A stretch of DNA of 10,696 nucleotides from a virus, in the UHGV virus genome UHGV-1749428; one strand, given 5' to 3'. Every line of letters starts with the position of its first letter. Positions within the stretch are counted from its first letter, which is position 1. Of the stretch, positions 1 through 10,696 are shown piece after piece. A program made the translations under genes and the position numbers. The notes under the pieces are model-generated. The model made no database searches. It worked only from the letters and a program-made list of their open reading frames with translations, and was not told the DNA's origin.

Positions 1-285
1 ACGGGCTGGACGAAACTAACGGGAGGTTTTTTGACGAAAAAACAGTTTATCAAGCTATATGATGAATGCTCAAAACATATTCACGTAAGGAACCCATATC
101 GGGTTAGGGAAAACTCGCTGGGGTTTCATAAAAAAGTTCCAGAGTATTTATCAAGAATTGAAACTCTACTGTTAAAGCACATTGTTTCTCTTGCCGGGAA
201 TGAAGAACTTCTTCTTGTAGATGTGCCTCATTATGAAGACTCTGTAACAGCTATAAAAATGAGCCACCTCGTTAAAATGGGGTGA
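1..285 (+). CDS. 3' end of an unrecognised cargo ORF (hypothetical protein), probably 5'-truncated by the window edge
   Basis: Frame 1 is open from nt 1 to the TGA at 283-285, so the ORF likely continues upstream; the ORF track begins it at a TTG at 31. About 38% GC over 1-300, unlike the phage genes. The translation (…FIKLYDECSKHIHVRNPYRVRENSLGFHKKVPEYLSRIETLLLKHIV…) matches nothing I can name. Confidence 0.4.
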   Translation, partial: TGWTKLTGGFLTKKQFIKLYDECSKHIHVRNPYRVRENSLGFHKKVPEYLSRIETLLLKHIVSLAGNEELLLVDVPHYEDSVTAIKMSHLVKMG

Positions 286-321
286 AAAATAAGCAATAAA
301 TAGTCGATTCTAGTGAACGGT

Positions 322-346
322 CGGCTATTTTGAGCCGGATTTTTAT
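322..346 (+). terminator. Weak candidate intrinsic terminator downstream of the cargo ORF
   Basis: CGGCT (322-326) / loop ATTTTG / AGCCG (333-337), followed by GATTTTTAT. The stem is only 5 bp, so this is weak. Confidence 0.3.
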
Positions 347-691: not shown

Positions 692-1726
692 TCAGCCGTT
701 GTCAGTGTCCAGTGAGTAGTTTTTAAAGCGGATGACCTCCTGACCGAGCCAGCCGTTTATCTCGCGGATCCTGTCCTGTAGCGGGATAAGCTCATTGCGG
801 ACAAAGACCTTTGCCACTTTCTCAATATCGCCCAGCGACCCGACGTTCTCCGGCTTGCCGCCCATCAACTGAAAGGGGATGCGGTGCGCGTCCAGCAGGT
901 CAGCGGCGCTGGCTTTTTTGATATTAAAAAAATCGTCCTTCGTTGCCACTTCACTGAGCGGGATAATTTTAATGCCGTCGGCTTTCCCCTGCGGGGCATA
1001 GAGAAACAGATTTTTAAAGTTGTTGCGGCCTTTCGACTTCACCATGTTTTCGCGGAGCATTTCGATATCGTTGCGATCCTGCACGGCATCGGTGACGTAC
1101 ATGATGTATCCGGCATGTGCGCCATTTTCGTAATACTTGCGGCGGAACAGCGTGGCCGACTCATTCAGCCAGGCAGAGTTAAGGGCGCTGAGATATTCCG
1201 GCAGGCCGTACAGTTCCTGATTAATATCCGGCTCCAGCAGGTGAAACACGGAGCCGGGCGCGAAGGCTGTCGGCTCGTTGAAGGACGGCACCCACCAGTA
1301 AACATCCTCTTCCACACCACGGCGGGTATATTTTGCCGGTGAGGTTTCCAGCCTGATAACTTTACCGGTGGTGCTGTAACGCTTTTCCAGAAACGCATTA
1401 CCGAACACCAGAAAATCCAGCACAAAGCGGCTGAAATCCTGCTGGGAAAGCCACGGATGCGGGATAAATGTCGACGCCAGAATATTGCGTTTGACGTAAA
1501 TCGGTGAGCTGTGATGCACGGCAGCACGCAGGCTTTTTGCCAGACCGGTAAAGCTGACCGGTGGCTCATACCATCTGCCGTTACTGATGCATTCGACGTA
1601 ATCCAGAATGTCACGGCGGTCGAGTACCGGCACCGGCTCGCCAAAGGTGAATGCCTCCATTTTCGGGGTGCTGGCGGTCATTTTTTTTGCCGCAGGTTGC
1701 GGTGTTTTCCCTTTTTTCTTGCTCAT
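692..1726 (-). CDS. Q: Portal protein gpQ
   Basis: 344 aa, the same length as P2 gpQ, and the translation (MSKKKGKTPQPAAKKMTASTPKMEAFTFGEPVPV…) is recognisable as the P2 portal. The start overlaps the P stop (ATGA). Confidence 0.93.
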   Translation of the reverse strand: MSKKKGKTPQPAAKKMTASTPKMEAFTFGEPVPVLDRRDILDYVECISNGRWYEPPVSFTGLAKSLRAAVHHSSPIYVKRNILASTFIPHPWLSQQDFSRFVLDFLVFGNAFLEKRYSTTGKVIRLETSPAKYTRRGVEEDVYWWVPSFNEPTAFAPGSVFHLLEPDINQELYGLPEYLSALNSAWLNESATLFRRKYYENGAHAGYIMYVTDAVQDRNDIEMLRENMVKSKGRNNFKNLFLYAPQGKADGIKIIPLSEVATKDDFFNIKKASAADLLDAHRIPFQLMGGKPENVGSLGDIEKVAKVFVRNELIPLQDRIREINGWLGQEVIRFKNYSLDTDNG

Positions 1727-3498
1727 CAGTAAAACTCCAGAATGGTGGATGTCAGCGGGGTGCTGATACCGGCGGTGAGTGGCTCATTTAACAGGGCGTG
1801 CATGGTCGCCCAGGCGAGGTCGGCGTGGCTGGCTTCCTCGCTGCGGCTGGCCTCATAGGTGGCGCTGCGTCCGCTGCTGGTCATGGTCTTACGGATAGCC
1901 ATAAACGAGCTGGTGATGTCGGTGGCGCTGACGTCGTATTCCAGACAGCCACGGCGGATAACGTCTTTTGCCTTGAGCACCATTGCGGTTTTCATTTCCG
2001 GCGTGTAGCGGATGTCGCGCGCGGCAGGATAGAACGAGCGCACGAGCTGGAACACGCCGACACCGAGGCCGGTGGCATCAATACCGATGTATTCGACGTT
2101 GTATTTTTCGGTGAGTTTGCGGATGGATTCAGCCTGGGTGGCAAAGTCCATGCCTTTCCACTGGTGACGCTCAAGTATTCTGAATTTGCCACCGGCCACC
2201 ACCGGCGGTGCCAGCACCACGCATCCGGCGCTGTCTCCACGGTGTGACGGGTCGTAACCAATCCATACCGGACGTGAGCCGAACGGATTGGCGGCAAACG
2301 GCGCATAGTCTTCCCATTCTTCCAGCGTGTCGACCATGCAGCGTTGCAGCTCCTCGAACGGGAACACCGATGCCTTGTCGTCAACAAATTCACACATGAA
2401 CAGGTTTTTAAAATCGTCGGCGCTGTTTTCACGTTTGAGCTGCTCAATGTCGAACAGTGTGCAGCCACCTTTCAGGGCATCCTCAATGGTGACAATCTGC
2501 CGCCACTGGCCGTCCGCACAGAGAAGACCACCGGCAAGGGCGTTATGACTGACGTCGATTTCCACGCGTTCGGCGGCGCTGGCGCGTCCCCGGTTAAACA
2601 GTTCACCCGACCAGAACGGGTAGGCGTCGTGCGCCAGCGTGGACGGGGTGGAGAAATAGGTCGAGCGCAGGTGACTCTGTGAGGCCATACCTGATGCCAC
2701 CTTACGCAGTACCTGAAAATTCGGGATCCAGAAAATCTCGTCGACGTACAGGTCGCCGTTATGGCTCTGCGCGGTGTTGGAGTTGGTGCCGAGAAAAATC
2801 AGTTTTGCGCCGTTATTGCCCAGGACAATCGGGTCACCGGTCAGGTCAACGTCAACCAGACGGGCAAAGGCGATGATGTATTCGCGGAACACATACGCCT
2901 GTGTTTTACTGGCCGACAGAAAAATCTGGTTATGACCGGTTTTCAGGGCGCGCAGCAGCGCCTCGCGGGAAAAATAAAACGTCGCGCCAATCTGGCGGGA
3001 TTTCAGTATATCGCGGATGCGGTGCTCAAGCCCGGCGCGATACCAGTGCAACTGATAGTCGAAAGACTGCTCAAAGAAAATCTGCTCCAGCTTTTCGATG
3101 GCTTCGTCACTGAAAAAATTCTTTTTCGGTTTGCGACGCTCGCCTTTGTTGCGGTTAGCGACGTTCGGATTAAGGTCTGCCTCGTTGCCGGTCTGGCTGT
3201 AGCGGTTGACCCGTGCCAGTCGTTCAATCTGGCGTCCCAGCAGGTCAATTTCCTTGAAGTCACCGCCGGTTTTCTGCGGTTTGATGATGAGCTGGGTCAG
3301 CCGCGCTTCCAGGCTCATTTCGACACGGCTGATGGGGGCAACGCTGTCCCAGCCGTCGCGCTGTTTCCAGCTCTGCACCGTCGGGCGTTTCATCTGCAAC
3401 ATGGCGGCAATCTGCGGCACGGAAAACCCCTGCCAGTACAGCAGCGCCGCCTGACGACGCGGGTCGTGTAAAAGAGTGGTGTCTGTGGTGATGGTCAT
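1726..3498 (-). CDS. P: Terminase large (ATPase) subunit gpP
   Basis: 590 aa from the ATG at 3496-3498 (MTITTDTTLLHDPRRQ…), preceded by GAGG 5 nt upstream. The ORF track's longer start at 3528 adds 10 residues with no RBS. Length and sequence match P2 gpP. Confidence 0.93.
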   Translation of the reverse strand: MTITTDTTLLHDPRRQAALLYWQGFSVPQIAAMLQMKRPTVQSWKQRDGWDSVAPISRVEMSLEARLTQLIIKPQKTGGDFKEIDLLGRQIERLARVNRYSQTGNEADLNPNVANRNKGERRKPKKNFFSDEAIEKLEQIFFEQSFDYQLHWYRAGLEHRIRDILKSRQIGATFYFSREALLRALKTGHNQIFLSASKTQAYVFREYIIAFARLVDVDLTGDPIVLGNNGAKLIFLGTNSNTAQSHNGDLYVDEIFWIPNFQVLRKVASGMASQSHLRSTYFSTPSTLAHDAYPFWSGELFNRGRASAAERVEIDVSHNALAGGLLCADGQWRQIVTIEDALKGGCTLFDIEQLKRENSADDFKNLFMCEFVDDKASVFPFEELQRCMVDTLEEWEDYAPFAANPFGSRPVWIGYDPSHRGDSAGCVVLAPPVVAGGKFRILERHQWKGMDFATQAESIRKLTEKYNVEYIGIDATGLGVGVFQLVRSFYPAARDIRYTPEMKTAMVLKAKDVIRRGCLEYDVSATDITSSFMAIRKTMTSSGRSATYEASRSEEASHADLAWATMHALLNEPLTAGISTPLTSTILEFY

Positions 3499-5661: not shown

Positions 5662-6399
5662 ATGACGAGTCCCGCACAGCGCCACATGATGCGGGTCTCG
5701 GCAGCGATGACCGCGCAGCGGGAAGCCGCCCCGCTGCGACATGCAACTGTCTATGAGCAGATGCTGGTCAAGCTGGCCGCAGACCAGCGCACACTGAAAG
5801 CGATTTATTCAAAAGAGCTGAAGGCCGCGAAAAAACGCGAACTGCTGCCGTTCTGGTTGCCGTGGGTGAACGGTGTGCTGGAGCAGGGCAAAGGTGCACA
5901 GGATGACATTCTGATGACGGTCATGCTGTGGCGTCTGGATACCGGCGATATTGCCGGTGCGCTGGAGATTGCCCGTTATGCCCTGAAGTACGGTCTGACC
6001 ATGCCGGGTAAACACCGCCGCACCCCGCCGTACATGTTCACCGAGGAGGTGGCGCTCGCGGCCATGCGCGCCCACGCTGCCGGTGAGTCTGTGGATACCC
6101 GCCTGCTGACGGAGACCCTTGCACTGACCGCCACGGCAGACATGCCTGATGAAGTGCGCGCAAAGCTGCACAAAATCACCGGTCTGTTTCTGCGTGACGC
6201 TGGTGATGCCGCCGGTGCGCTGGCTCACCTGCAACGTGCGACACAGCTCGACTGTCAGGCAGGCGTCAAAAAAGAGATTGAACGACTGGAGCGGGAGCTG
6301 AAACCGAAGCCGGAGCCAAAAGCGGTCACCCGCGCCCCGCGTAAGACCCGGAGTGCGACACCGGCAAAACGTGGACGCCCGAAAAAGAAAGCCAGTTAA
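5662..6399 (+). CDS. M: Terminase small (endonuclease) subunit gpM
   Basis: 245 aa immediately after N (3-nt gap, GGAG RBS inside the end of N); sequence recognisable as P2 gpM, with a basic C-terminal tail. Confidence 0.9.
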   Translation: MTSPAQRHMMRVSAAMTAQREAAPLRHATVYEQMLVKLAADQRTLKAIYSKELKAAKKRELLPFWLPWVNGVLEQGKGAQDDILMTVMLWRLDTGDIAGALEIARYALKYGLTMPGKHRRTPPYMFTEEVALAAMRAHAAGESVDTRLLTETLALTATADMPDEVRAKLHKITGLFLRDAGDAAGALAHLQRATQLDCQAGVKKEIERLERELKPKPEPKAVTRAPRKTRSATPAKRGRPKKKAS

Positions 6400-8991: not shown

Positions 8992-9421
8992 TGCCGTCAC
9001 GGTGCTGAAAACTAACCCCGATATGCTGCGGATATTCGTGGATAACGGGAGTATTGCCTCCACACTGGCGGCGTCGCTGTCATTCGAAAAGCGTTACACG
9101 CTCAATGTCATTGTGACCGACTTTACCGGTGATTTTGACCTGCTCATCGTGCCGGTGCTGGCGTGGCTGCGGGAAAATCAGCCCGACATCATGACCACCG
9201 ACGAAGGCCAGAAAAAGGGCTTCACGTTTTATGCAGACATCAACAATGACAGCAGCTTTGATATCAGTATCAGCCTGATGCTGACCGAGCGCACGCTGGT
9301 CAGTGAGGTTGACGGTGCGCTGCATGTGAAGAATATCCCGGAACCTCCGCCGCCGGAGCCGGTCACCCGCCCGATGGAGCTTTATATCAATGGTGAACTG
9401 GTGAGTAAGTGGGATGAATGA
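8954..9421 (+). CDS. R: Tail completion protein gpR
   Basis: 155 aa (MLKPDSLRRALTDAVTVLKTNPDMLRIF…), with a PEPPPPEP tract near the C-terminus; length and sequence match P2 gpR. Confidence 0.92.
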   Translation: MLKPDSLRRALTDAVTVLKTNPDMLRIFVDNGSIASTLAASLSFEKRYTLNVIVTDFTGDFDLLIVPVLAWLRENQPDIMTTDEGQKKGFTFYADINNDSSFDISISLMLTERTLVSEVDGALHVKNIPEPPPPEPVTRPMELYINGELVSKWDE

Positions 9422-9866
9422 GTTTAAGCGTTTTGAAGACCGGCTGACCGGACTGATTGAATCGCTGTCACCGTCAGGGCGTCGGCGACTGAGCGCCGAA
9501 CTGGCGAAACGTCTGCGGCAGAGTCAGCAGCGTCGGGTGATGGCACAGAAAGCCCCGGACGGCACACCCTACGTGCCACGCCAGCAGCAGAGCGCCAGAA
9601 AAAAGACCGGTCGCGTTAAGCGAAAAATGTTTGCGAAACTTATCACCAGTCGTTTTTTGCATATCCGCGCCAGCCCGGAGCAGGCATCAATGGAGTTTTA
9701 CGGCGGGAAGTCACCGAAAATCGCCAGTGTGCATCAGTTCGGTCTGTCGGAAGAAACCCGGAAAGACGGTAAGAAAATTGATTATCCGGCGCGTCCTCTG
9801 CTCGGCTTTACCGGTGAGGATGTGCAGATGATTGAAGAGATTATCCTGGCTCACCTCGACCGTTAG
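9414..9866 (+). CDS. S: Tail completion protein gpS
   Basis: 150 aa (MNEFKRFEDRLTGLIESLSPSGRRR…), overlapping the R end by 8 nt; length and sequence match P2 gpS. Confidence 0.92.
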   Translation: MNEFKRFEDRLTGLIESLSPSGRRRLSAELAKRLRQSQQRRVMAQKAPDGTPYVPRQQQSARKKTGRVKRKMFAKLITSRFLHIRASPEQASMEFYGGKSPKIASVHQFGLSEETRKDGKKIDYPARPLLGFTGEDVQMIEEIILAHLDR

Positions 9867-9932
9867 TTGTGCCATTCCTGACACCTCATCGTCACATTGC
9901 CGCCGGTATGACCCGGCGGCATCCTTCCCGTT
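9867..9932 (+). promoter_or_regulatory. S-V intergenic region with a perfect GC-rich hairpin; expected site of late promoter P_V
   Basis: GCCGCCGG (9899-9906) / loop TATGAC / CCGGCGGC (9913-9920), 12 nt before the V start codon, with no U-tract after it. In P2 an Ogr-dependent late promoter precedes V; promoter elements were not identified by eye. Confidence 0.35.
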
Positions 9933-10536
9933 ATGAACACTCTCGCAAATATTCAGGAACTCGCGCGCGCACTGCGCAACATGATTCGTACCGGCCTTGT
10001 CGTCGAAACCAACCTTAAAGCCGGTCGCTGCCGTGTGCAGACCGGCGGCATGTGCACCGACTGGCTTCAGTGGCTGACCCATCGCGCCGGACGTTCGCGC
10101 ACATGGTGGGCACCTTCCGTGGGGGAACAGGTGCTGATTCTGGCTGTGGGCGGTGAACTCGACACGGCGTTCGTTCTGCCGGGGATTTATTCCGGCGATA
10201 ACCCCGCGCCGTCTGCGTCGGCGGATGATTGAGTATGAACCCGAAACCAGTGCACTCACGGTAAGCGGAATTAAAACGGCCAGCGTGACGGCTTCTGATT
10301 CTGTTACTGCCACGGTGCCGGTGGTCATGGTGAAAGCATCAACCCGCGTCACCCTGGACACACCGGAGGTGGTCTGCACCAACAGGCTGATTACCGGCAC
10401 GCTGGAAGTGCAGAAGGGCGGGACGATGCGCGGCAACATTGAACACACCGGCGGTGAACTCTCATCAAACGGGAAGGTACTGCATACCCATAAACACCCC
10501 GGCGACAGCGGCGGCACAACCGGGAGCCCTCTATGA
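9933..10536 (+). pseudogene. V: Baseplate central spike gpV, split by a frameshift into a 99-aa N-terminal ORF (9933-10232) and a C-terminal ORF in the +1 frame (ATG at 10225, ending 10536)
   Basis: The N-terminal ORF (MNTLANIQELARALRNMIRTG…SASADD*) stops at TGA 10230-10232. The V-like sequence resumes in the +1 frame (MIEYEPETSALTVSGIKTASV…HTHKHPGDSGGTTGSPL). The two parts total about 201 aa against 211 aa recalled for P2 gpV, consistent with a deletion of about 32 nt near 10224-10228. Confidence 0.75.
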
Positions 10537-10696
10537 CAGCGCGTTATCTCGGAATGAATCGCAGTGATGGCCTGACTGTCACTGACCTTGAGCATATCAG
10601 CCAGAGTATCGGCGATATCCTGCGCACACCGGTCGGCTCACGGGTGATGCGTCGTGATTACGGCTCGTTGCTGGCGTCAATGATTGACCAGCCGCA
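10533..10696 (+). CDS. W: Baseplate assembly protein gpW (gp25-like), 3'-truncated by the window end
   Basis: ATG at 10533 overlapping the V stop (ATGA); translation MTARYLGMNRSDGLTVTDLEHISQSIGDILRTPVGSRVMRRDYGSLLASMIDQP… matches the P2 gpW N-terminus. Absent from the ORF track because no stop codon falls inside the window. Confidence 0.88.
   Translation, partial: MTARYLGMNRSDGLTVTDLEHISQSIGDILRTPVGSRVMRRDYGSLLASMIDQP

Follow-up and report, generated by a model that had tools for sequence, protein, structure and literature searches.

The closest described counterpart of the locus examined here is gene V of phage P2, which lies between S and W and encodes gpV, the central baseplate spike protein. 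The intact protein is 211 aa long (PDB 3QR8, residues 1-211), and its domains follow one another in the order OB-fold, triple beta-helix and Apex, the last with an HxH iron cage in which the iron is bound by H197 and H199 of an HTHKH motif. Solved fragments of P2 gpV comprise residues 97-211 (3QR7, 8VOL-8VON) and 86-211 (3AQJ); the fragment 97-211 folds alone as a trimer, and infection does not require the Apex, the deletion of which is tolerated (bioRxiv 10.1101/2023.02.25.529910). Two mutants with premature V termination have been described. P2 vir1 Vam1, which carries an amber codon at Gln9, does not grow on a non-suppressor host (bioRxiv 10.1101/2023.02.25.529910), and Vam46 has been used in the same way, V being needed for growth on non-suppressor hosts (PMC12407873). 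A P2-like prophage with one structural tail gene disrupted in an otherwise conserved late region also exists in E. coli OkiPb01694, where the tail tube gene is split by ISEc12 (L002, 19582-22686).

The DNA analysed here, referred to as the window, is a stretch of 10,696 nt that represents the late region of a P2-like (Peduovirus) genome, its gene order and gene lengths being equal to those of annotated P2-like prophages. Behind cos come Q and P on the minus strand; the plus strand carries, in this order, O N M L X Y K lysA lysB lysC R S V and the opening 164 nt of W, with V placed between S and W as it is in P2 and more than 30 relatives. Over its full length the window is 97.9% identical to a prophage found in E. 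coli KOr024, and about 1,470 records of complete E. coli genomes contain 80% or more of the window; the V-region DNA is 97.8% identical to a P2-named record from E. coli O157:H43 T22 (KC618326 / NC_041848). The exact P2 cos 19-mer GGCGAGGCGGGGAAAGCAC, which we take to be the cohesive end, lies uncut at 504-522 on the plus strand and is preceded by 503 nt of non-structural DNA. As the site is both internal and uncut, the DNA must derive from a prophage or from a circularized or permuted assembly rather than from an end-defined virion genome. The features on which the following account depends are listed here.

692-1726, minus strand: gene Q
1726-3498, minus strand: gene P
9414-9866, plus strand: gene S (tail completion gene)
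9933-10232, plus strand: V ORF1, gpV residues 1-98 followed by a single additional Asp; stop codon TGA at 10230-10232; 99 aa
10225-10228, plus strand: deletion junction, 32 nt of V missing (V nt 294-325, equivalently 295-326 or 296-327)
10225-10536, plus strand: V ORF2, +1 frame, Met plus gpV residues 110-211; 103 aa
10533-10696, plus strand: start of W (gp25-like baseplate wedge), ATGA overlap with the V stop, truncated by the window end

The first-pass annotation, made from the letters of the window alone, had described V as split by a frameshift that it attributed to a deletion of about 32 nt, to be defined by alignment against P2 and its relatives. When 9933-10540 was aligned with gene V of the P2-named record NC_041848 and of E. 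coli OkiPb01694, the gap proved to be exactly 32 nt, and whole-window alignments with KOr024, with MLI104K2 and with an ENA metagenome contig (L005, see below) returned the identical gap. The gap is thus an alignment result, independent of any chance estimate. The other particulars of that description also held: a 99-aa ORF ends at the TGA at 10230-10232, gpV-like sequence resumes in the +1 frame at 10225, the length given for P2 gpV (211 aa) agrees with the solved structure, and the estimated 11 lost codons correspond to residues 99-109, ALHIRFPDGAV (L or M at the second position). Residues 1-98 of ORF1 are identical to residues 1-98 of the gpV encoded by L005. The +1-frame ORF as a whole spans 10153-10536, the C-terminal gpV sequence within it beginning at the ATG at 10225-10227, which is made by the junction itself and precedes the stop codon of ORF1 by 3 nt (ATGATTGA). 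The missing block, TGCC[C/A]TGCATATCCGTTTCCCTGACGGGGCGG, can be placed at three equivalent positions because of a TG microhomology at 10226-10227 that leaves its position ambiguous by 2 nt. It is flanked by imperfect direct repeats, GGCGGATG (GGCGG(A)TG) on the left and GGCGGTG on the right. Clean slippage between the GGCGG repeats was considered and rejected, as it would have removed 33 nt and preserved the frame; the lesion is therefore better described as a 2-nt microhomology deletion.

The domain content of the two ORFs matches that of P2 gpV, to which the window has high sequence identity over the residues it retains. A Phage_base_V OB-fold (PF04717) was detected in ORF1 at residues 19-86 (E = 3.9e-21; 75.6 bits, the cut-off being 23.8), and the trimeric beta-helix domain Phage_spike (PF18715) in ORF2 at residues 30-82 (E = 1.1e-28), i.e. 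in a different reading frame from the OB-fold. The Apex model PF18946 scored 18.2 bits in ORF2, under its cut-off of 20.8, although an intact relative reached only 19.0; the HTHKH motif is present in ORF2 and the region matches PDB 3QR8, so that the Apex with its HxH motif can be recognized. In the intact relative, OB-fold, Phage_spike and Apex all reside in a single 211-aa chain, whereas in the window the frame is broken after codon 98, residues 99-109 are deleted and the domains are distributed over separate polypeptides. That the N-terminal domain is cut off from the spike tip, as stated in the first-pass annotation, is therefore confirmed. The 3QR7-type fragment comprises residues 97-211, and the deletion therefore cuts into its N-terminal end, uncoupling the attachment domain from the needle. 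The lesion resembles Vam1 and Vam46 in terminating V prematurely, but those are suppressible point nonsense mutations, whereas that in the window is an unsuppressible frameshifting deletion which leaves a complete OB-fold domain; compared with OkiPb01694, a small microhomology deletion takes the place of an insertion sequence and a different tail gene is affected.

Our favoured explanation, to which we assign a probability of roughly 0.65, is that a recent, private 32-bp deletion turned V of a P2-like prophage into a pseudogene. Loss of V nt 294-325, between ends that share only 2 nt of exact microhomology, shifts the frame after codon 98, with a stop two codons later; the product is a 99-aa OB-fold domain that lacks the beta-helix and Apex, and the coding part for residues 110-211 is left in the +1 frame. 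Judging from the literature, a gpV reduced to its OB-fold would be unable to carry the needle, and ORF2, if made at all, would have no tether to the baseplate and would lack residues 99-109. There are good grounds to expect that a V split in this manner should prevent formation of a functional tail: V is essential in P2, and for this reason tail assembly or infection is expected to fail, with baseplate or tail assembly or membrane piercing being the likely point of failure, as in the P2 V amber mutants. The predicted outcome is a defective prophage in which the head, packaging and lysis modules would still work. The remainder of the window is in keeping with such a history, since all 14 other complete genes are intact, full length and free of internal stops, in agreement with the first-pass annotation, and these intact neighbours, together with near identity to a sibling sequence with intact V, point to a very young event.

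That sibling is the nearest relative found, ENA metagenome contig ERZ1744806 NODE_2203_length_10728_cov_2.90 (L005), which has a coverage of 2.9x and was recovered through the gpM allele of the window. It shares its first and last base with the window and differs from it by 16 SNPs and by the presence of the 32 nt (10,728 = 10,696 + 32); it encodes an unbroken 211-aa gpV, and apart from the 32 nt the two do not differ between 9072 and the window end. Ten of the SNPs are synonymous and six non-synonymous, and the window allele was found in other P2-like loci at 15 of the 16 positions. As these alleles are natural and the SNPs mostly synonymous, the window is a genuine strain variant rather than a corrupted copy. 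The one allele without a natural counterpart is the T of the window at 2236 (gene P, synonymous), which was seen in none of the 29 other loci checked and may reflect a private mutation or a base miscalled at low coverage. Just beyond the ends common to the two contigs the sequence is conserved in other genomes, with no obvious mosaic boundary. The identical ends suggest that both contigs came from one read set, from two closely related ones or from a shared mixture of strains; the window is thus probably a sibling assembly of L005, made from the same sample or one closely related to it that holds more than one P2-like strain.

The deletion junction itself was sought widely. A 76-nt junction probe matched 1,417 complete E. 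coli genomes by BLAST, the best 10 of the 1,417 being two-piece matches that span 108 nt with the 32 nt present, and it matched 114 phage records, the best 8 of the 114 likewise being two-piece matches spanning 108 nt. The deletion allele is marked by the 20-mer CGGCGGATGATTGAGTATGA. Exact searches did not find the junction in GTDB representative genomes (40-mer and 20-mer), in IMG/VR (24-mer) or in JGI metagenomes (24-mer and 20-mer), and the exact 99-aa ORF1 product is not on record among called genes, nor is the lysA product of the window. The first-pass annotation had allowed that intact relatives might naturally carry V as two ORFs, but V is a single 211-aa ORF in all 29 fetched loci in which it is complete, and the matches listed among E. 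coli and phage records likewise encode one 211-aa gene; the genomes returned by a portal-protein look-up, all of them larger, have V intact without exception. Since V is whole in the nearest relative, with its 16 mostly synonymous differences, and the junction was not encountered in any collection searched, the deletion is either private and very recent or an artefact.

An artefact of library construction, sequencing or assembly is accordingly the main rival of an inactivating deletion, and one that we consider less probable. It would require that V is intact in the template and that the gap arose from a chimeric or template-switched read, or from a misresolved bubble in a low-coverage mixture of strains. 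The end-to-end alignment of the window with a contig of k-mer coverage 2.9 in which the 32 nt are present is what such an origin would predict, the 16 SNPs resemble strain bubbles, and the shared ends suggest that one read set, or a closely related pair, was assembled twice, with one version retaining an intact V. The window is itself, we infer, a short, low-coverage metagenome contig, which gives more weight to this interpretation, as a single aberrant read could have set the consensus. Moreover, template switching by a polymerase would also leave a TG microhomology within the GGCGG repeat, and the uniqueness of the junction among the collections searched counts against a genuine deletion, the allele being without independent confirmation. 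The sequence is otherwise not noisy, however. Over the 10.7 kb aligned with KOr024, the gap is accompanied by just one further indel, a natural in-frame 6-nt allele of M; single-base indels are absent, and no other indel errors occur. A loss of 32 nt is also untypical of Illumina or homopolymer error. A shortcut of the assembler (de Bruijn) graph through the repeat was rejected, since the flanking repeat amounts to at most 5 nt + 2 nt. Being far shorter than any assembler k-mer, the GGCGG/TG repeat could not have collapsed the graph, and at least one sequenced molecule, whether genuine or an amplicon, would therefore have carried the junction; in addition, assemblers normally retain the better-covered branch of a bubble.

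The remaining explanations accept the junction as real but assume that V still functions. ORF1 might supply the OB-fold and ORF2, reinitiated at the ATG in ATGATTGA, the beta-helix and Apex of a non-covalently assembled spike, or the OB-fold alone might suffice for a usable blunt tail. The junction-made ATG, 3 nt upstream of the ORF1 stop, has a geometry that fits translational coupling like that of the native V/W ATGA, and the 97-211 fragment trimerizes alone with a dispensable Apex (bioRxiv 10.1101/2023.02.25.529910). The ATG is not preceded by a properly spaced Shine-Dalgarno sequence, though, the anti-SD duplex of -4.4 kcal/mol coming from bases that abut the start codon, and at most a weak termination-reinitiation could be envisaged there. 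Furthermore, ORF2 would be untethered to the OB-fold domain and lacks residues 99-109 from the N-terminal end of the folded fragment; the arrangement occurs in no relative among the matches listed and the 29 loci; and the ATG is a by-product of the GGA|TG joining, one private allele showing no sign of selection. We consider a functional split very improbable, although if true it would be a tolerated one, implying that a minimal contractile tail can do without a covalent link between OB-fold and needle. Scarcely credible is the idea that V is naturally divided, or that full-length gpV is restored by programmed +1 ribosomal frameshifting. All that speaks for a frameshift is the 80-nt overlap of both frames (10153-10232), and any fusion made within it would still lack residues 99-109. 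Judged by the well-established prfB-type site, the GAT TGA at the end of ORF1 is not a plausible +1 slippery site, as tRNA-Asp would need to re-pair on AUU. Neither a slippery site nor a conserved arrangement was thus found, all relatives among the matches listed and the 29 loci encoding one 211-aa ORF, and a natural two-ORF V was rejected on the same grounds. The suggestion in the first-pass annotation that the element might be a satellite or a tailocin-like remnant found no support and was discarded, because no damage is seen in cos, the packaging genes (terminase included), the head genes (portal, scaffold and capsid among them), the lysis genes, R or S, and because the flanking sequence is nearly identical to that of a relative whose V is intact.

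V in the window is a disrupted copy of a thoroughly characterized gene in a very common prophage family, a kind of feature that is already known; its division reflects either ordinary gene death or an assembly error at low coverage, not a new gene arrangement. The annotation of V should read pseudogene or possible assembly error, and the reads should be checked before the element is taken for an intact, inducible P2-like prophage. If the deletion is real, it captures prophage decay at a very young stage, in which a small microhomology deletion has struck an essential tail gene but has left the genes for packaging, head and lysis unharmed; beyond annotation, its importance is slight.

Several further observations were made in the course of this analysis. 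A 294-aa antisense ORF (9711-10595, minus strand) covers all of V; it has no significant Pfam or PADLOC match and most likely is no gene but results from the GC richness of the coding strand. The spacer between S and V is only 66 nt in the window and in P2, and in loci L021-L025, L027 and L031, a lineage with the gpK allele of the window, an extra gene of 246-251 aa is found between S and V (e.g. L021, 12389-13129), for which no Pfam match was obtained. The 6-nt allele of M (5662-6399) is a CAGCCC difference near 6318, in the stretch that encodes the Lys/Pro-rich C-terminus of gpM, the small terminase subunit, making the protein 245 aa long in the window vs 247 aa; the allele is common to L005-L010, and a 245-aa M is also called in L016 and L034, so that it represents a natural length polymorphism. 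MLI104K2 (L003) has five single-base deletions relative to the window, with frameshifted P and L, and these single-base indels look like (long-read) sequencing error.

At the left end of the window (1-330), an ORF at 31-285 encodes the last 84 residues of a hypothetical protein of 197 aa, the full gene of which is present in L004 (2692-3285). This gene occupies a variable cargo slot between the replication genes and cos, and its product has no significant Pfam or PADLOC match. In other P2-like prophages the same slot holds DNA methylases, a SacI-type restriction enzyme, an AAA+/S8 peptidase pair, and HATPase_c_3 or DprA-like genes. The slot resembles the P2 defence hotspot, and the 197-aa protein is therefore a candidate cargo or defence gene.
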